37,867 bases of DNA, taken from IMG/VR virus record IMGVR_UViG_3300045988_120615. One strand, written 5' to 3'. The DNA is from a virus. Below the pieces are notes generated by a model that was not told the DNA's origin, did no database searches, and saw only the letters and a program-made list of their open reading frames with translations. Positions 1 through 37,867 of this stretch are shown piece by piece (positions within the stretch are counted from its first letter, which is position 1; every line of letters starts with the position of its first letter). A program made the translations under genes and the position numbers.

Positions 1-55
1 CTGTCTGCGTCGAGCCGAACGCGGCAGCATTACCACCTTCAGCACGGAAAAACAG
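1..55. repeat. Copy of the 72-bp tail-fibre inverted repeat; identical to 37813-37867 (assembly overlap of a circular contig)
   Basis: The first 55 nt of the window are identical to the last 55 nt. The reverse complement of this sequence also occurs at 37299-37353. Confidence 0.85.
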
Positions 56-3102: not shown

Positions 3103-3818
3103 TGCGGTTCACCTGTCGTTGATCCCCCGGACTGGACGCCACCGTGAACATGCGTTTCAAGAGTGATCCCATTGCTGGAAATCGTGCCGCCGGTGTTCGT
3201 AATGCCGCCGGATGTTTGTGCGCCGGAACCTTTCGCGCCGGTCTGTGTCATCTGTCCTGTGATCGTCATGAGTGGCGTATCGACCGTCACTTGCTGATCT
3301 GCCGTGATCGTCACTGTCGGGGCTGTCAGATTGATAGCTGTCGGCGAGTACACCGTAATTCCAGCTTGAGAGAACTGGATATACTGCGTTGGCGTGCTGT
3401 TCAGAATGCCGTTGACATATATGGCGTCAGACAGTGAGAACTTGCGAAGTGACGCGGTCGCAGAATCCCCGCGAGTGCGTTTCACGCCTGAAATGTCGCG
3501 GCTTGAGAAAACCGCAAACCCGATGTCGCCCGGCTCCGGATCTATGATGATCGCGTTCGCCCCGCCTTGAAGCCTGAAATATGGCGCGTTGTATATCGCC
3601 GGATACGGTACCATTTCTCCGGTTGCTGTCTGCTGCTGGATCAGCGGCTGGATATTGGCTGTTCCAACGGGAGCCAAACCGCCACCATTCACAGCAAGCA
3701 CCTTGCACGGCAGACAGGCGTACATCTCACGAATGAACGCATCGAATTGATAGCGTATTTGCGCTATTTCGTCTGTTGACAGCCCAAATGAAGCATTTTC
3801 TGTATAGTTATTGTCCAT
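3099..3818 (-). CDS. Baseplate assembly/spike protein V (Mu gp45-like)
   Basis: 239 aa with a Gly/Thr-rich C-terminus containing the HVHGGVQSGGSTTGEP tip motif. Lies upstream of the gp46-like gene. Confidence 0.5.
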   Translation of the reverse strand: MDNNYTENASFGLSTDEIAQIRYQFDAFIREMYACLPCKVLAVNGGGLAPVGTANIQPLIQQQTATGEMVPYPAIYNAPYFRLQGGANAIIIDPEPGDIGFAVFSSRDISGVKRTRGDSATASLRKFSLSDAIYVNGILNSTPTQYIQFSQAGITVYSPTAINLTAPTVTITADQQVTVDTPLMTITGQMTQTGAKGSGAQTSGGITNTGGTISSNGITLETHVHGGVQSGGSTTGEPQ

Positions 3819-8650: not shown

Positions 8651-10129
8651 TCACCGGACGACAATGGATGCAACGGTGATCTGCTGGATGGAACCGCCGT
8701 CCATGTAATAGAGAGAAATGGGGGGGGACTGGCGCTGACCTCTGGTCTGTGCCGTTGCTTCGCCGATGTACAGGTAGTATCCCTGCGTTTGCAGCTCGGT
8801 CGAAATATCGAAGCCGAGTGCGGAAATGATCTGCGCTTTCTGGTTGTCGGACAGCGTGACGCCGATGCGGATCGTGCCGTTGTTAAGCGCTTCGTTGATC
8901 GGATCCGTGCATGCCAGTCGAATGAGCGCATTGCCGTCTGCGTTGTACGGTAGCGAGTTGACAGAAGTCAGCAGGGTTGCAATCGCCAGTTGCAGCTGTG
9001 CGTTCAGGTAAATCTGGTTGACATAGGTATCCGCAAACCCATAGTCGGAACCCGGAAGCTGGCTGTTGTACAGGAAATTGAACGTATTTCCTTCGCCTGC
9101 TGCGGAATAGGCCCCGTAATAGGTATAACCGTTCGACAGCAGCGTTTCCGCGTCTTGCAGGCTGGTAACCGTTGCAGCAAGACCGGATTGTGACTTGAAC
9201 GCAAGGTCGATTCGCCCGTTGTACCGCGTCCAGTCGATAGACGCGATGCTGCCCATCGCCATTGCTGCAATAGAGATGTTGTCCCAGACAGGTAAAACCG
9301 CTTCGTACTTCATCTGCTGGCAGGTTTGCCCCAAGCAGGTTGAGTTGGCGACAAGTGCTTGCGGATCGTTGTCCCACGGGACGAACAGATACCGCTTGTT
9401 CTGCGTGTTGACCCATGCGCAGAAATCCTGCGGATTTTCCAGCGCGTCAACGATGGTGAACGTCGCCCAGTTGAGCGAAAGCGCCTGAATGCGATCCATT
9501 GCGGTAGTCGCCGTATCGGCATCTGCGCCCTGCGATACCGTCCCGGTAGCCAGACCAAGCGCGACTGCGCCGGGACCCGTGACCGCGCTGATTGTCGATG
9601 CTGCTCCGGTTGCGGTAACGGTGATACGGAAACAGTTGAATGTCGCGTCCCACGTGACGGTAGCGGCATCGGACGTGTTGAGTGCCGTAGTCAGCAATTC
9701 CGCTGCATTGGTGAAACTGGTCGCCGTGGACAGGTTTACACTGTCGATGTTGTACGCCTGACCACCGATGGTGACGGACAGCGCACCGGTAACGGCTTTC
9801 AGCTGATCCAGCGTCATACCTGCGAGAGACGAACCGCGTACCCACGCGCCGACCGCATCGGACGCATAAGGCGTGAAGATGATCGCCTGCGGTTTTTTCG
9901 TGCTGTTGTCGAAAGACAGGAAATAGTTGTCAGCCAGCGCCGCCAATGGGGACGAACTGCCGAAATACTCGGAAACAGCGTCGGCAGAATAGAACTGCTG
10001 TAACTGCCCGAAAGGAACGTCGGCTTCGGTCGTGACGAACACGCCGTTCAGCGCGAGCGGATTGCCGCCCGTACCAACAACACCCGGATTGATCGTCACC
10101 ACCTGCGAAATCGGGATGGTTTGAGCCAT
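8651..10129 (-). CDS. Contractile tail sheath protein
   Basis: 492 aa with C-terminal ...ISLYYMDGGSIQQITVASIVVR. The size and position (before tube) match Mu gpL-like sheaths. Confidence 0.65.
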   Translation of the reverse strand: MAQTIPISQVVTINPGVVGTGGNPLALNGVFVTTEADVPFGQLQQFYSADAVSEYFGSSSPLAALADNYFLSFDNSTKKPQAIIFTPYASDAVGAWVRGSSLAGMTLDQLKAVTGALSVTIGGQAYNIDSVNLSTATSFTNAAELLTTALNTSDAATVTWDATFNCFRITVTATGAASTISAVTGPGAVALGLATGTVSQGADADTATTAMDRIQALSLNWATFTIVDALENPQDFCAWVNTQNKRYLFVPWDNDPQALVANSTCLGQTCQQMKYEAVLPVWDNISIAAMAMGSIASIDWTRYNGRIDLAFKSQSGLAATVTSLQDAETLLSNGYTYYGAYSAAGEGNTFNFLYNSQLPGSDYGFADTYVNQIYLNAQLQLAIATLLTSVNSLPYNADGNALIRLACTDPINEALNNGTIRIGVTLSDNQKAQIISALGFDISTELQTQGYYLYIGEATAQTRGQRQSPPISLYYMDGGSIQQITVASIVVR

Positions 10130-26069: not shown

Positions 26070-26744
26070 ATGAATATTGGGCGAAGATTAAAAGAAGAAA
26101 GAAATTTAAAAGGGCTGTCTCAACAACAGCTTGCGGATGCTGTTGGCATAAAACAATCTGCTATCTCGCAACTTGAAAGCGGCGCCTCGCAAAAAACTAC
26201 TTACGCTGCCGCAATAGCGGCCAAACTGGGAGTAAACGCCTTATGGCTTGAAACTGGAAGAGGCCCTAAATATCCGGAAGTTTCCGAACCACAGTCCCCC
26301 TCAGAAGACGAATATTTCCTTGTACCGATACTCGACGTACACGCTGCGTGCGGGAACGGACATTTCAACGATCAGGCGCTTGTGGAAGGCGGTTTCGCGC
26401 TGCCAAAAGTCATGCTGCATGATCTGGGCGTGCCTGAAGGACAAGGACGCATCATCCATGCGAAGGGTAATAGCATGGCTCCAACGATTCAGGACGGGGC
26501 CGTAGTTCTCATTAATCTGGCTGACAAGGAGCCAATGATGAGTAAAGTGTATGCGGTTTGCCTGCCGCATGAAGGTCTCGTGCTGAAACGACTGACTTAT
26601 GAATACATCGAGGCTGCGGGGACGTCCGTCTGGATGATGAAGAGCGACAATCCGGACAAGAACCAGCATCCGGACAGGCGTTTGCCTCCTGACGAATCAA
26701 CGATCATCGTCGGGCGGGCAGTGTGGTATGGGAACAGATTGTGA
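26070..26744 (+). CDS. CI/LexA-like phage repressor (HTH_XRE plus S24 peptidase)
   Basis: 224 aa. N-terminal HTH: LSQQQLADAVGIKQSAISQLE. The C-terminus has the Ser nucleophile (GNSMAPT) and the Lys (LVLKRL) of the S24 autopeptidase. Confidence 0.8.
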   Translation: MNIGRRLKEERNLKGLSQQQLADAVGIKQSAISQLESGASQKTTYAAAIAAKLGVNALWLETGRGPKYPEVSEPQSPSEDEYFLVPILDVHAACGNGHFNDQALVEGGFALPKVMLHDLGVPEGQGRIIHAKGNSMAPTIQDGAVVLINLADKEPMMSKVYAVCLPHEGLVLKRLTYEYIEAAGTSVWMMKSDNPDKNQHPDRRLPPDESTIIVGRAVWYGNRL

Positions 26745-30291: not shown

Positions 30292-30489
30292 ATGAATGAA
30301 CTGGTGAAGTTGCGCGAAATGCTTTGCGAGATTTTTGGCAATGTGGATTCTTATTTGGTTGTCACAAGAGATGGCGATCAGGCCTACACGGCATTTGATG
30401 CCAACAATGATGATCTGGCTTATATGGTTGCGCTCGCCAATAAAGCGCTTATGCAGCGCCTTGAACAAAAAAATAAAAATCTGAATTGA
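30292..30489 (+). CDS. Hypothetical small protein
   Basis: 65 aa (MNELVKLREMLCEIFGN...) with an AAGGAG RBS. Confidence 0.35.
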   Translation: MNELVKLREMLCEIFGNVDSYLVVTRDGDQAYTAFDANNDDLAYMVALANKALMQRLEQKNKNLN

Positions 30490-30503
30490 ACCTTGAAAAT
30501 ACC

Positions 30504-30899
30504 ATGAGTAAACCATATTGCCGCTACTGCAAGAATGACATACATCTGTACTACATCGGGGACGCCGAATATCCATATCAGAAGGACTACGGCCCTGTCT
30601 GGAAATGTGTCCCGTGTGACGCTTATGTTGGGTGCCACAAGGGCACCGAACGCCCTCTTGGCCTAGTAGCGGATGCAGCAACCCGCGCTGCAAAAATCAA
30701 GGCTCATGCCGCTTTCGATCCTCTATGGATGCGGAAAATGCGAAAAGAAGGGATATCGAAATCGGTCGCTCGTGGTGCTGGATACCGCTGGCTTGCTGAT
30801 CAACTAGGCATCCCAAAAGAAAAATGTCATATCGGTATGTTCAGCGTCGATACCTGTCTGCGAGTTATAGAAATTTGCGAAAACGTTGGGAGGAGATAG
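30504..30899 (+). CDS. Zinc-ribbon prophage protein (DUF3268-like)
   Basis: CRYC...CVPCDAYVGCH...PLGLVADAATRAAKIKAHAAFDPLWM...YRWLADQLGIP. Alternatively a TTG start at 30486. Confidence 0.4.
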   Translation: MSKPYCRYCKNDIHLYYIGDAEYPYQKDYGPVWKCVPCDAYVGCHKGTERPLGLVADAATRAAKIKAHAAFDPLWMRKMRKEGISKSVARGAGYRWLADQLGIPKEKCHIGMFSVDTCLRVIEICENVGRR

Positions 30900-31229
30900 A
30901 GAAATGAAAGCAGTAATAACCATTGAAGACGATGGGGATGAGGTAAAGATAAATGCCTATTTCGGAGAAAACGGCATTAACGATGAATCGTATGCGCACT
31001 ATTTGGCATGTTTTGCCGTAGGAAAAATCGCTGAAAAAATGAAATCAGAAGACGCTTGACAGACAGGTGAACTATGAGTGAATTGGAAAAGATTTCGGCT
31101 GTAAAGGAAAAAAGTCAGGCAATCGGAGAATTTCTGGAGTGGGCACGATCGGAAGGATTTTTTCTCGCAAGCTGGCAGCATTTCGGAAATCCGGAGCCTG
31201 AAGGTTACGACAGACTTCTCGGGTGAACG

Positions 31230-31649
31230 ATGAAAGAAATAGTTGATCGGATTCTGGCCGGTAGTGTTGTGGATATTGCCAAAGACGGTGGGGATTATTA
31301 CTTAAATGTTTTAAAGGATGGCAATAAATATAAAATCGGCTTTATGAGTTCGTTGCATAACAAGGAATATGGCTCGCGTTTAACCGTTGAAATGATTAAA
31401 GAGGCCGTAGAACGTTTGATTGCGTTGTCGGATGAATTGAATGCTCGGAAGAAGTTTAAAAATGGAGACAAGTATTTTACTGTAAGGCCCAACGGAAAAA
31501 TAATTGATTGGTATTTCGATTCTTCTGAATCAGGGGACATGGCACGTCTGTATATGGGCAATCTGTTCACGACACTTAAAGAAGCCGAAGAAAATAAAGG
31601 CGCTGTTATGGCGAAGTATCAGGAGTTGAGAGACAAGGGATTAGTATGA
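31230..31649 (+). CDS. Hypothetical protein (AT-rich cargo island)
   Basis: 139-aa ORF, the first of four overlapping genes in a low-GC block. Confidence 0.4.
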   Translation: MKEIVDRILAGSVVDIAKDGGDYYLNVLKDGNKYKIGFMSSLHNKEYGSRLTVEMIKEAVERLIALSDELNARKKFKNGDKYFTVRPNGKIIDWYFDSSESGDMARLYMGNLFTTLKEAEENKGAVMAKYQELRDKGLV

Positions 31650-31834
31650 GCTATATGAAACGAATCATACTAATTTTACTGGGGTTATACATATTATTTT
31701 GTCCTTTTATCCCGGTGTTTTTTGATGAATCCATGAGAGAAGAATTAAAGGCGGCAGTCTTTTTATCTTTAATAATGGCACTCAGTTTCATGCCGATTGT
31801 TTATGTTTTTTGGGATTTAATAGATGACGACTGA
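31646..31834 (+). CDS. Small two-helix membrane protein (cargo island)
   Basis: 62 aa: MSYMKRIILILLGLYILFCPFIPVFF...AAVFLSLIMALSFMPIVYVFW. Confidence 0.35.
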   Translation: MSYMKRIILILLGLYILFCPFIPVFFDESMREELKAAVFLSLIMALSFMPIVYVFWDLIDDD

Positions 31835-32150
31835 AAGAAAACCACATAAATGGGCCGAAATCATCAAGGCTTGGGCTGATGGAAAACCGATACAGTATAA
31901 GTATTTGGACTGGAAAGACAGCGAGTGGAAAGATAATGATATGCCTCTCCCAAGATTCGATATAGGCGATCTTGAATGGCGCGTCAAGCCGAAAAATATA
32001 GTCGTCAAAACAAAGCTTGGATATGAAATAGATAGTTTTACCGGTTGGGGAAAGCTTTTTCATGATACAGGAGTTAAGCCGAATATCCGTTTTGAGTTTG
32101 ACCCGGAAACCCTCAAACTTGTTAAAGCGGAGATGATCGGAAATGAGTAA
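31824..32150 (+). CDS. Hypothetical protein (cargo island)
   Basis: 108-aa ORF overlapping its neighbours. Confidence 0.35.
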   Translation: MTTERKPHKWAEIIKAWADGKPIQYKYLDWKDSEWKDNDMPLPRFDIGDLEWRVKPKNIVVKTKLGYEIDSFTGWGKLFHDTGVKPNIRFEFDPETLKLVKAEMIGNE

Positions 32151-32340
32151 AGGGCTTACCGTATTTATTAAGACAGGCATGCGCGGAAGTGAAGTCAAAG
32201 AATTTTATTCTTGGGATAAATTAGGAATTACAGAACAGGAATTTGACGATATGCCAAAAGAAATACAAGAAAAATTTGCGTGGGAGATCGCCAGTGAAAA
32301 CATTGAATGGGGTTTTTACAAGGGGAAAGAAAATGACTAA
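32143..32340 (+). CDS. Hypothetical small protein (cargo island)
   Basis: 65-aa ORF. Its stop overlaps the Lar-like start. Confidence 0.3.
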   Translation: MSKGLTVFIKTGMRGSEVKEFYSWDKLGITEQEFDDMPKEIQEKFAWEIASENIEWGFYKGKEND

Positions 32341-32767
32341 AACGCCTGAATTGCTGCCGTGCCCTTTCTGTGGAGGCCCGGCGGATTTTCAAGAAAATGA
32401 ATGCATTGGATACGCATATTGTATTCAATGCTTAGCTAAAACAGATGAATTTTATTCTTGGAGAAATAATAACTGGAAAGAAGATGCAGCACGGGATTGG
32501 AACTCCCGCACTCAATGTCCAGAATGTGAAAAAAAGAAAAAGGCGATTGAGCACATTTCGTTTCACCTTGAAATGGTTTTATGCGCGATGCAAGCAGCTT
32601 ACGTCGAAATGTGTAACACAGGTGCAGATAACGCAATGCGTTGGATTGAAAACACTCTCGACGGCCCGGGATTGATTCCCGACGTACCAAAAGGAATAAC
32701 CGCACAAGAATTTTTTGATAAAGAAATGGCGGAACTTGAATCGAGGATGAGGAATGAAACCAACTGA
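32333..32767 (+). CDS. Lar-family restriction-alleviation protein
   Basis: The start is at the internal ATG at 32333. ELLPCPFCGGPADF is the Lar hallmark, followed by further Cys pairs (CIQC, CPEC). Confidence 0.5.
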   Translation: MTKTPELLPCPFCGGPADFQENECIGYAYCIQCLAKTDEFYSWRNNNWKEDAARDWNSRTQCPECEKKKKAIEHISFHLEMVLCAMQAAYVEMCNTGADNAMRWIENTLDGPGLIPDVPKGITAQEFFDKEMAELESRMRNETN

Positions 32768-32945
32768 TTTTTTACCAAAAACATACGAAGAGATAGAAGA
32801 TTTTGTTGGTCTAAATTTTATATACCGGGAAGAGAAAGATGGAGAAATATTTTTCAAACTGTCAGCACATGATCTTTTGTCCTCATTTAGGGACTTGAAG
32901 GATGCGATTGGAGAGAAAAATGATAATGGTGTACGTGCAATATAA
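32754..32945 (+). CDS. Hypothetical small protein
   Basis: 63-aa ORF at the end of the AT-rich island. Confidence 0.3.
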   Translation: MKPTDFLPKTYEEIEDFVGLNFIYREEKDGEIFFKLSAHDLLSSFRDLKDAIGEKNDNGVRAI

Positions 32946-33299
32946 GGACAGACCAGATGTCTGCGGGACGGCTTTCGGTGGTGTTATGGACGAATTTCTG
33001 AATCAGGATGAACTGGCCTTTTTAACCGGAAGGACAAAAAAATCCGCACAAATTCGGTGGCTGACGAACTGGGGATACCGTTCCAGCGTTTTCAGTTTCG
33101 CGATTTACGCGCCAAAGCGGCAACAGACATAAGGGACATTTACGGCATCGTCGAAGCATCTAACCTGCTGGGACACACCAACACCAGAACGACGGAAATC
33201 TACATACGACAGCAAAAAGGCAAGACGGTAAGACCGGTTATGGCGAAACAGGTGTTTCGCCATGAAGACGCAAAGAAAGTCGGGAATGATGATAAGTAA
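32902..33299 (+). pseudogene. int: Remnant of a lambda-type tyrosine integrase (C-terminal ~130 codons only, frameshifted)
   Basis: The second frame (33057-33299) reads ADELGIPFQRFQFRDLRAKAATDIRDIYGIVEASNLLGHTNTRTTEIYIRQQ. This matches the lambda Int C-terminus (TFHELRSLSARLY...LLGHKSDTMASQYRDD), including the catalytic Tyr. The upstream part is in another frame; the A7 run at 33035-33041 is the likely shift site. The N-terminal two-thirds, carrying the catalytic Arg/Lys, is absent. Confidence 0.55.
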
Positions 33300-33309
33300 T
33301 TGATTTAAT

Positions 33310-33359
33310 TGGCCTGCCCTAGTGGATTCGAACCACTGACCTACGGCTTAGAAGGCCGT
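33310..33359 (-). tRNA. 3-prime ~50-nt fragment of a tRNA-Arg(UCU) gene: anticodon stem-loop, variable loop, T arm, acceptor 3-prime strand and CCA. Putative attP core.
   Basis: The minus strand reads acggc-cttctaa-gccgt-aggtc-agtgg-ttcgaat-ccact-agggcag-g-cca. The anticodon is TCT with U33 and A37, and the T-loop is canonical TTCGAAT. No matching 5-prime acceptor strand or D arm lies upstream, so this is a fragment, as expected for an att core in a tRNA-targeting phage. Confidence 0.5.
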
Positions 33360-33395
33360 TTACAAATTATTTAAAATCAATAGGTTAGTTAAATT

Positions 33396-33473
33396 TTCGT
33401 TTCGCCATGCACAAAAAATAATCAGCTCAAACACCTGATAAATACTAGCTATTATTTTTTATGGCGAAACACT
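33396..33473. repeat. 10-bp inverted repeat GTTTCGCCAT / ATGGCGAAAC flanking an AT-rich spacer next to the att core (candidate recombinase arm / IHF-type sites)
   Basis: ttcgtttcgccat at about 33396-33408 and atggcgaaacac at about 33462-33473. Confidence 0.3.
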
Positions 33474-33509: not shown

Positions 33510-33968
33510 TCATTGCAGCGCCTTGTACTGATCAATACACAGATTCAGCTCCCGGATTGCTGCGTCTCCGTCGGCTGCGATAGAGATAAGATCGTAAGCA
33601 GTCTTTCCGTCAAGTTCGGCTCGCGTTTCTCCAGCGTCATTGGTGGTATTTCCGGGCACTGTACAGCCACGGGCGGGGACTGACAGGCGCACAGTGCCAG
33701 CACGTATGCGACCGCGCAGCCGGTTGATTTCAGTTTGTGCATTCTTTTTTTCCTTTTCGTGTTTTCTGGCCAGCGCGTCGTGTTCCGCCTGCATGGCCTG
33801 TTCTTTCTTGCGGGCATCCTGTTCGGCTTTCAGGACGGCTTCGGCGTGGTCTTTTTCCAGTTTGGCGATCCGGTTTCCGCTCCACCAGCCGTTGATCGTC
33901 CAGCCCAAAAAAATGCCGGTCACAAGACCGGCAAGCAGGATGATCGATTTCGTTTTCAGGTTTTCCAT
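33510..33968 (-). CDS. Rz-like inner-membrane spanin (i-spanin)
   Basis: 152 aa with an N-terminal TMD (SIILLAGLVTGIFLGWTI), a central coiled coil, and the C-terminus RLSVPARGCTVPGNTTNDAGETRAELDGKTAYDLISIAADGDAAIRELNLCIDQYKAL. This is colinear with lambda Rz (RRLHIKAVCQSVREATTASGVDNAASPRLADTAERDYFTLRERL...QKYINEQCR). Confidence 0.6.
   Translation of the reverse strand: MENLKTKSIILLAGLVTGIFLGWTINGWWSGNRIAKLEKDHAEAVLKAEQDARKKEQAMQAEHDALARKHEKEKKNAQTEINRLRGRIRAGTVRLSVPARGCTVPGNTTNDAGETRAELDGKTAYDLISIAADGDAAIRELNLCIDQYKALQ
33545..33742 (-). CDS. Rz1-like outer-membrane lipoprotein spanin (o-spanin), embedded in the +1 frame of Rz
   Basis: MHKLKSTGCAVAYVLALCACQSPPVAVQCPEIPP. It has a signal/lipobox-like LALCAC followed by a Pro-rich segment, as in lambda Rz1. 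Confidence 0.4.
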   Translation of the reverse strand: MHKLKSTGCAVAYVLALCACQSPPVAVQCPEIPPMTLEKREPNLTERLLTILSLSQPTETQQSGS

Positions 33969-37298: not shown

Positions 37299-37370
37299 CT
37301 GTTTTTCCGTGCTGAAGGTGGTAATGCTGCCGCGTTCGGCTCGACGCAGACAGACGGGGCACCGAATATT
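37299..37370. repeat. Left inverted repeat (IR-L, 72 bp) of the tail-fibre tip segment
   Basis: It is the reverse complement of 37796-37867 with one mismatch (37805 C versus T). In both orientations it encodes the junction peptide LFFRAEGGNAAAFGSTQTDGAPNI. Confidence 0.85.
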
Positions 37371-37604
37371 TATGGTAGTGTTTCTTTCGGTGTATATAAC
37401 GATTCCGCGGGGGCTGCACCTCATAACCCAATTGGTGCTTTCGGTATCGGGGCGGCAGAACTTACATGGCTGAGTCAAGGCGAAAATCAAAGATCAGCGC
37501 CAACGTATTTCGATTTTTATGCCAGCAGAGTTGACAGTAGATACAACTTACCCGAAGTGAGGACGGTTAACAGTACTATCCGTGTCTGGAAAAGGACAGC
37601 CTAA
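37371..37604 (+). other. Silent alternative tail-fibre C-terminal tip cassette (Sv-prime-like). It has no promoter, RBS or start of its own and would be expressed only after inversion or conversion.
   Basis: The + frame continuing from IR-L reads ...GAPNI-YGSVSFGVYNDSAGAAPHNPIGAFGIGAAELTWLSQGENQRSAPTYFDFYASRVDSRYNLPEVRTVNSTIRVWKRTA-stop (TAA at 37602-37604). It is homologous to, but diverged from, the expressed tip. The upstream part of track ORF 37200-37604 is antisense to the tfa start and is not a real N-terminus. Confidence 0.6.
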
Positions 37605-37867
37605 GCAGTGCGTTTCCAGATGCGGACGGTGCTGTTGTAAGGGCGTACTTCAGCCAGAACATATTTCCCGTTGCTATTTGAGGCGACAAAATTGATTTGA
37701 GCAGCACCGCGTGTCGCGAAGTTCCAGCCCGCGCCACCTACATTGTAAAATGCCCCCGATGCATATCCACCATCATTAACACCGATTGATCCTGTAATAT
37801 TCGGCGCCCCGTCTGTCTGCGTCGAGCCGAACGCGGCAGCATTACCACCTTCAGCACGGAAAAACAG
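37601..37867 (-). CDS. Tail fibre protein, currently expressed C-terminal receptor-binding tip. It continues from 1-892 across the circular junction.
   Basis: The reverse-complement translation reads LFFRAEGGNAAAFGSTQTDGAPNITGSIGVNDGGYASGAFYNVGGAGWNFATRGAAQINFVASNSNGKYVLAEVRPYNSTVRIWKRTA-stop (TAG, complement at 37601-37603). It is in frame with the ORF that starts at 892. Confidence 0.7.
   Translation of the reverse strand: MFFRAEGGNAAAFGSTQTDGAPNITGSIGVNDGGYASGAFYNVGGAGWNFATRGAAQINFVASNSNGKYVLAEVRPYNSTVRIWKRTA
37796..37867. repeat. Right inverted repeat (IR-R, 72 bp). Positions 37813-37867 are duplicated at 1-55.
   Basis: See IR-L. Together the two repeats bracket a 425-bp segment (37371-37795) that holds the two tail-to-tail tip cassettes. 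Confidence 0.85.

Follow-up and report, generated by a model that had tools for sequence, protein, structure and literature searches.

A free circular Oxalobacter phage genome with an attP site and deletion remnants of its integrase and predicted excisionase genes

The DNA examined here, IMG/VR record IMGVR_UViG_3300045988_120615 (37,867 nucleotides, taken at its full length and referred to as the window), very probably carries the integration module of an ex-temperate phage lineage that exists as a free circular form, still encodes a CI repressor and is unable to integrate alone. Two simple deletions have reduced the integrase gene (int) and the adjacent gene for a predicted excisionase (xis) to remnants, while the attachment site beside them appears complete, with four arm sites present. 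Loci and contigs compared with the window are numbered L001 to L031.

The circular genome, its host and the attachment site

Bases 1–55 of the window recur exactly at 37813–37867, as direct sequence comparison shows, and two independent contigs, L015 and L016, bridge both window ends. Therefore, the window is a complete circular phage genome of 37.8 kb. It belongs to a lambdoid-organised Oxalobacter myovirus from the gut. The plus-strand early arm encodes a CI-like repressor (26070–26744), Erf, SSB, a Gam-like protein and Lar, with the xis and int remnants at its end. On the minus strand are NinB, an O-like replication initiator, RusA, the large terminase, portal, protease, major head protein and tail/baseplate genes, and these minus-strand genes wrap round the circle to the tail fibre, endolysin, HNH endonuclease and Rz spanin; a gene for a sheath-like protein is also present. 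Among the window ORFs there is no second recombinase, partition system or transposase able to replace Int, the called genes of L016–L025 hold no other recombinase, and host genes are found neither in the window nor in L016–L025. Megablast of 25 kb and of the region itself against GenBank phages returned no match. The features that define the genome form and the attachment site are as follows.

1–55, plus strand: terminal 55-nt duplicate, identical to 37813–37867; it marks circular closure and is also one arm of the tail-fibre inverted repeat
33240–33470, no strand assigned: whole attP, the core plus four ATGGCGAAAC arm-type sites (putative extent)
33240–33249 (plus), 33254–33263 (minus), 33399–33408 (minus) and 33461–33470 (plus): the ATGGCGAAAC arm-type sites, exact 10-mer copies
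33310–33360, minus strand: attP core, 51 nt, the 3' end of the Oxalobacter tRNA-Arg(UCU) (Rfam, 32.6 bits; exact match to complete host genes)
33510–33968, minus strand: Rz-like spanin, final gene of the late operon, which bounds attP on its other side (phrog_2466, E = 2.5e-34)

In phages that integrate into tRNA genes, attP carries the 3' end of the target tRNA, and the gene is restored upon integration. The initial annotation had seen at 33310–33359 of the minus strand the 3' part of a tRNA-Arg(UCU) with no 5' half, and this is borne out by Rfam and ARAGORN, with base 33360 to be added. The core covers the anticodon stem-loop, variable loop, T arm, 3' acceptor strand and CCA. With the Rfam tRNA model, pairing is found only in the anticodon arm, the T arm and the 3' acceptor strand, the supposed 5' half being unrelated and unpaired, and ARAGORN finds no complete tRNA in the window. 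A missing 5' half is to be expected since the site is an attP. Identity to the host tRNA-Arg gene extends over 51 nt and ends at 33361, in agreement with the earlier reading of the fragment as an att core. It is the attP core of a tRNA-integrating phage and not a sign of a damaged prophage.

The full host gene, which the initial annotation had proposed to look for, was found: 11 Oxalobacter contigs have, beside tRNA-Pro(tgg), a complete tRNA-Arg(tct) gene whose 3' end is the same 50-nt string, and the core is exact in the complete tRNA-Arg(tct) genes of L002–L012, L026, L030 and L031. Because the fragment is identical to the Oxalobacter gene, the host is Oxalobacter. The core begins 10 nt past the int stop codon and sits between int and the late-operon end (Rz), which is a lambda-like position. 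The distance from the previous gene to the core is about 365 nt, close to the ~400 nt first estimated.

The same tRNA locus also turns up under other names. L001 (IMGVR_UViG_3300047546_001929), an unrelated phage contig of 49 kb that encodes a DNA ligase and four tRNAs, carries at 2047–2123 a tRNA-Arg(tct) identical over 77/77 nt to the Oxalobacter chromosomal gene. The Oxalobacter tRNA-Arg locus is found in L008, binned as Oscillospiraceae, together with Oxalobacter-type tRNA-Pro and glmM, and in L013, a 1.29-Mb scaffold named 'Alistipes senegalensis' whose flank is common to the O. formigenes contig L012. The last two have the look of public MAGs that were mis-binned or scaffolded into chimeras.

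On both sides of the core lie short repeats. The 10-mer ATGGCGAAAC is present in the 37.9-kb window as exactly four exact copies, two on each side of the core and none more than about 150 nt away from it; 0.16 copies would be expected by chance, and none of 100 shuffles reaches four. In the free genome L015 all four recur with unchanged offsets, and at the attL junctions L008 and L026 only the int-side pair is kept. The repeats thus behave as would be expected of arm-type Int-binding sites, to which Int presumably binds. The int-side pair, that is, the left arm, falls within the final 60 nt of the int coding sequence. Since the left arm lies within the int 3' coding region, the retained int stub is partly attP.

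A more distant phage, with an int about 58% identical, is represented twice in a single MAG (Oxalobacter sp. MAG13081), in L009 by an attL junction and in L003 by an attP-like contig. In L003, a copy of the arm motif with one mismatch, CTTTCGCCAT, stands at the same offset.

Int+ relatives give the ancestral layout in both of its forms.

L008, L026, L030 and L031, integrated: DUF4224 gene (69–70 aa), int (373–374 aa), complete tRNA-Arg, tRNA-Pro, then host genes
L015 and L027, free phage genomes: the same xis–int module with attP, then Rz

In the four integrated relatives, int overlaps the stop codon of the DUF4224 gene, the attL junctions show complete tRNA-Arg genes, and the flanking host genes include glmM, folP, ftsH, greA and carB. 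For L030 and L031 (contigs of 1.15 Mb and 55 kb, respectively) the neighbours are glmM, folP and ftsH. All four are integrated at the tRNA-Arg that matches the core, the corresponding attB. Intact integrases of at least 90% identity are common, forming a 54-member cluster of 373/374-aa proteins on chromosome-length contigs, and this tRNA-Arg is a busy integration site in Oxalobacter.

Independent lesions of int also occur. The free 48-kb genome L015, which has attP, lacks 5 nt at about 10440, and L008 lacks 4 nt at about 958; a 13-nt 'insertion' in L008 was dismissed as a 10-N scaffold gap and not biology. In L014, the first ~33 int codons and xis are replaced at about 9990–10010, giving a 326-aa form (P0002), the representative of a cluster whose 19 members are largely int fragments. 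Nevertheless, intact copies predominate, and the notion that all copies of this int are broken was rejected on account of the 54-member cluster of intact proteins.

Remnants of int and xis and the two deletions

Five overlapping features describe what is left of the module upstream of the core.

32920–33132, plus strand: 70-aa chimeric ORF over both deletion junctions, the allele marker (exact product in 60 blocks, 28 contigs)
32977–32980, plus strand: small-deletion junction, in frame, about 312 bp net, joining the 5' end of a 122/126-aa gene to the xis start region
32986–33067, plus strand: predicted excisionase (DUF4224) remnant, first 27 of 69 codons (PF13986 positions 1–29 of 45, E = 3.7e-7)
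33060–33067, plus strand: large-deletion junction, 1,017 bp relative to L030 and L031, with the 8-nt microhomology GCTGACGA
33060–33299, plus strand: integrase pseudogene remnant, last 79 of 373 codons plus stop (PF00589, tblastn and nucleotide identity to relatives)

The ORF that contains the int remnant (33057–33299, frame 3) has as its sole in-frame start a GTG at 33057. It matches PF00589 at positions 121–170 of 172 with E = 1.5e-3, which is under the gathering score; the full-length int products of the relatives match the same family with E = 2.9e-11. By tblastn, the stub is 44–54% identical to phage integrase C-termini, and at the nucleotide level it is 94–95% identical to the int 3' ends of L015, L030 and L031. 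A word-indexed protein search with the 80-aa stub alone found nothing, and the reconstructed full-length Int gave matches.

The catalytic residues were mapped through lambda Int, which among solved proteins is the best homologue of the intact relative P0001. The stub keeps the equivalents of R311 (FRDLR), H333 (LLGH) and Y342 (EIY), with the same H+9 spacing in both proteins. By motif alignment, the equivalents of R212 (TGQR) and K235 (QNKTGEK), along with the arm-binding and core-binding domains, fall in the deleted 294 codons. A complete tyrosine recombinase active site (Arg-I, Lys, His/Arg-x-x-Arg, His/Trp, Tyr) is thus absent from the stub, as is an intact ORF of ~370 aa with N-terminal domains, and the stub is out of frame with the upstream ORF. 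The initial annotation was right that only a C-terminal stub of the integrase survives, that the Tyr (EIY) is kept and that the Arg/Lys N-terminal half is missing. What it took for ~130 codons in two frames is, however, ~79 codons in one, and its 'H-x-x-R' box reads R-D-L-R. Its conclusion that the integrase is non-functional and autonomous integration lost is supported by the deletion of the R212 and K235 equivalents and of the DNA-binding domains, from which the loss of function would follow.

The xis remnant belongs to a gene whose intact 69/70-aa DUF4224 homologues match PF13986 over profile positions 1–44 (E = 3.6e-17). The intact DUF4224 protein also matches the PHROG excisionase families 4764, 8896 and 1266 (E = 7.7e-18), and the label of predicted excisionase for DUF4224 comes from this annotation. 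In the relatives a complete domain of ~45 residues lies in a ~70-aa protein upstream of int; the window lacks it. The frame-1 ORF at 32902–33132 instead consists of the 5' end of the unrelated 122/126-aa gene followed by 27 xis codons, after which it runs out of frame into int.

Both breaks can be read directly from alignments. At the small deletion, window positions 32904–32977 correspond to L015 9398–9471 and positions 32980–33067, the xis remnant, to L015 9786–9873, both at 100% nucleotide identity, and the same break recurs against L027 and L030. The large deletion spans from xis codon 28 to int codon 294, and its flanks are 100% (left) and 95% (right) identical to L015. The string GCTGACGA occurs in xis and the imperfect form GCCGAAGA in int, and both flanking alignments include these 8 nt, which points to a microhomology-type deletion. 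Breakpoints of both deletions agree against five int+ references. The reading frames of xis and int differ, which puts the fusion out of frame and explains why two frames are seen. A 1-nt frameshift at the GGGG run 33071–33074 was considered as a way of joining them and rejected, because L008 and L015 show a deletion fusion of xis and int.

The order of events may then be pictured as follows. The ancestor would have had the order 122-aa gene, xis (DUF4224), int, attP and late-operon end, and it would have been integrated by Int at the 3' end of the host tRNA-Arg(UCU), using the 51-nt core and the four ATGGCGAAAC arm sites. A deletion of 1,017 bp between the 8-nt microhomologies would have taken xis codons 28–69 and int codons 1–294, and a second one of about 312 bp most of the upstream gene. 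Left over would be an apparently complete attP, a 79-codon int tail and the chimeric 70-aa ORF. The position of the left attP arm within the int tail may account, at least in part, for the retention of that tail.

Upstream of the module, window positions 30295–32903 (40% GC; small ORFs and a Lar-like restriction-alleviation gene) stand in the place of L015 6592–9398 and L027 5893–9371 as an alternative cargo module. In the int+ relatives, the same cargo position holds DNA methyltransferase genes, joined in L027 and L030 by a Tad2-like gene.

A further element was considered together with the integrase. The tail-fibre ORF lies on the minus strand, from about 895 through the origin to 37604, and contains an invertible segment of 459 bp (37354–37812) between 55-nt perfect inverted repeats at 1–55 and 37299–37353. 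If one mismatch is allowed, the repeats reach about 71 nt, and it is precisely at the repeat that the assembly breaks. The two C-terminal tips exchanged by inversion are homologous, measure about 70 aa each and share the ending ...IR(I/V)WKRTA. The genome has no invertase gene, and the initial annotation had linked the loss of integrase to this inversion. Such a link is not supported: both orientations occur among int-deleted genomes (the window and L020 in one, L016 and L019 in the opposite), and therefore this Int is probably not the tail-tip invertase. The L016 copy of the segment is about 4% diverged.

Spread of the deletion lineage and its probable mode of propagation

An exact-protein look-up places the 70-aa fusion product on 28 contigs, the longest of 38.7 kb, and in 60 blocks of the assembly collection; contigs with the allele typically measure 37.4–40.4 kb, and none is above 50 kb. 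The names of these records (ENA, Logan, JGI, NCBI) suggest several independent gut-metagenome studies. The same look-up has no record of the 76-aa version starting at 32902, and the exact junction string had no matches in IMG/VR and JGI metagenomes. In all 19 contigs that were read, Rz and the lysis genes follow the stub, which is the attP configuration, and the 671 nt around the stub, across both junctions, are identical in 10/10 loci fetched. The deletion allele is a real and widespread lineage and not an accident.

In shared segments, genomes of the lineage are 97.5–99.9% identical to the window, but they are mosaic, with two immunity types and alternative Erf and HNH modules. Only 2–3 sites vary in 3.4 kb. 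The lineage is thus nearly clonal and young, so conservation or decay of attP and CI is uninformative on selection. For the same reason, the 100% conservation of stub and attP was rejected as evidence of selection, the whole 3.4-kb neighbourhood being nearly invariant.

The exact CI repressor protein is found on 35 contigs and is intact in most members. In L018 the CI-like repressor is divided between two ORFs, one with the HTH and one with the S24 peptidase part (3118–3792), in L016 only the S24 part is called (2217–2579), and four other members have a different 212-aa repressor with a P22 Cro-like partner. Variation is also seen at the other side of attP, where L017 (11373–12885) and L024 (11730–13242) carry an IS200/IS605-type element (Y1 TnpA and TnpB) between Rz and the endolysin. 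The site corresponds to about 34.0–35.1 kb of the window, and other members hold different HNH/NUMOD4 endonuclease genes there. This interval looks like a hotspot for mobile nucleases.

How such a phage propagates we infer from assemblies. A phage with neither a recombinase nor an excisionase of its own would be incapable of autonomous integration and excision, because catalytic residues and xis are lost and the window holds no other recombinase. A free genome in attP form with dead int and xis would then not stem from excision of its own prophage, and it would have to pass between cells either without integrating or with help. We lean towards the former, namely that the lineage propagates without chromosomal integration, lytically or as unstable non-integrated carriers like lambda int-, and regard it as the more probable course. 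The split CI repressors of L016 and L018 speak for it.

Help would take the form of lysogeny in which attP is functional and resident int+ sibling prophages provide Int and Xis in trans. The intact CI of most members, the two immunity types and the four arm sites would fit helped lysogeny equally well. Sibling Int and Xis are 92–94% identical to the lost ones and would recognise the same arm sites, and Oxalobacter chromosomes commonly hold, at this same busy tRNA-Arg, int+ siblings whose int, xis and arm sites are nearly identical. However, the deletion allele lies beside host DNA or a complete tRNA in 0/19 contigs read, no contig bearing it exceeds 50 kb, and assemblers ran straight across attP, so that the attP form dominates. 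Oxalobacter is usually rare in gut metagenomes, and integrated copies could for this reason assemble poorly. A resident sibling, moreover, would fill attB and often give immunity, and the conservation of attP is accounted for by the youth of the lineage. Helper-dependent lysogeny is for these reasons possible but unlikely. We consider rather unlikely, too, its stronger form, in which the lineage would be no lytic dead end but an 'integrase parasite', that is, a full-size phage that has shed int and xis, keeps a working attP and borrows the Int and Xis of siblings for lysogeny and excision. If true, the independent int lesions (window, L015, L008, L014) would mean repeated evolution of this strategy, or else selection against integration in the gut.

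The initial annotation had offered a different account, in which AT-rich cargo inserted into a defective or satellite-like prophage and destroyed its integrase, leaving a frameshifted C-terminal half in two frames. The block at 31–33 kb is indeed AT-rich (40% GC) and differs from the L015/L027 module, and two reading frames do span 32902–33299. The alignments to L015, L027, L030 and L031 nevertheless refute it. The order of genes shared with the int+ relatives resumes at 32904, upstream of both deletions, so the AT-rich block neither abuts the int break nor replaces the missing part of int; what destroyed the gene were two simple deletions, with gene order kept on both sides in five int+ relatives. 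The upstream frame is made of xis and another gene and not of int, and the two frames are xis and int joined by deletion. The A7 run at 33035–33041, proposed as the site of a frameshift, is present and in frame in the intact gene of L015. Nor is the element a prophage or a satellite. A satellite would lack its own capsid, tail and packaging genes and need the virion of a helper, and a defective or cryptic prophage would be chromosomal, between attL and attR; the window is a circular assembly with an internal attP and the full set of terminase, portal, capsid, tail, lysis, replication and repressor genes. We therefore hold the cargo account to be highly improbable.

That the deletion is an assembly or sequencing artefact absent from the real phage is scarcely credible, for although the window is an assembly of short-read style (55-nt terminal overlap) and the comparison contigs L008 and L015 hold small indels and a scaffold gap, the ten identical loci come from different studies, sources and assemblers, and a microhomology of just 8 nt would not be long enough to lead a k-mer assembler astray.

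Significance and relation to known systems

With propagation without integration as the preferred reading, several consequences can be drawn. The 80-aa stub is labelled 'integrase' by JGI, and lifestyle tools based on integrase hits would misclassify a widespread gut phage as temperate and integrating. The lineage offers a clean natural case in which int and xis were lost in one microhomology deletion, with attP apparently and the repressor intact, and which has yet spread across many gut metagenomes. Taken together, the mapped attP and the intact Int and Xis of the siblings could serve as a ready-made tRNA-Arg integration system for Oxalobacter. The genus is studied for oxalate degradation and kidney-stone risk, and in a published survey of its genomes prophages were reported only via PHASTER calls (PMC9812493). 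As speculation, a non-integrating, presumably lytic Oxalobacter phage could bear on unstable colonisation.

The module is built like that of lambda in its xis–int–attP order, in the int 3' end abutting attP and in the arm-type sites on both sides of the core. As in lambda, it closes the pL operon and adjoins the late-operon end, and no solved homologue is closer to the intact relative than lambda Int. Unlike the lambda module, it has Int and Xis deleted, its predicted excisionase is of the DUF4224 type and not lambda Xis, the int stop codon is only 10 nt from the core, and one arm of attP lies within the int coding sequence. Lambda int- and xis- mutants show normal lytic growth, establish the repressor without stable integration (abortive lysogeny) and can be rescued by Int in trans. 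The same phenotype would be expected here, with the difference that this is a natural deletion spread over many samples and not a laboratory mutant.

Grounded or cryptic prophages likewise carry an int pseudogene fragment by an att site. Those, however, are chromosomal and lie between attL and attR, whereas the window is free and circular, with attP and a full gene set. Parallels are also found among ex-temperate phages, virulent by loss, that keep a damaged lysogeny module. Lactobacillus phage LL-H has defective integration elements related to the temperate mv4, and the lytic cos phages of Streptococcus thermophilus related to Sfi21 are further ex-temperate examples. The Oenococcus phage OE33PA is ex-temperate as well and keeps int and a repressor without attP (PMC6256464). 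Both it and the window are complete genomes of temperate ancestry with a fossil lysogeny module and, in our case presumably, no lysogeny by integration. The window is the mirror image of OE33PA, with attP and the repressor kept and int and xis deleted, in an uncultured phage known from metagenomes only whose lifestyle we infer. Ex-temperate phages with fossil lysogeny modules are thus already documented; the mechanism is an ordinary one, and the modest interest of the present case comes from its spread, the misleading 'integrase' label of the stub and its host.
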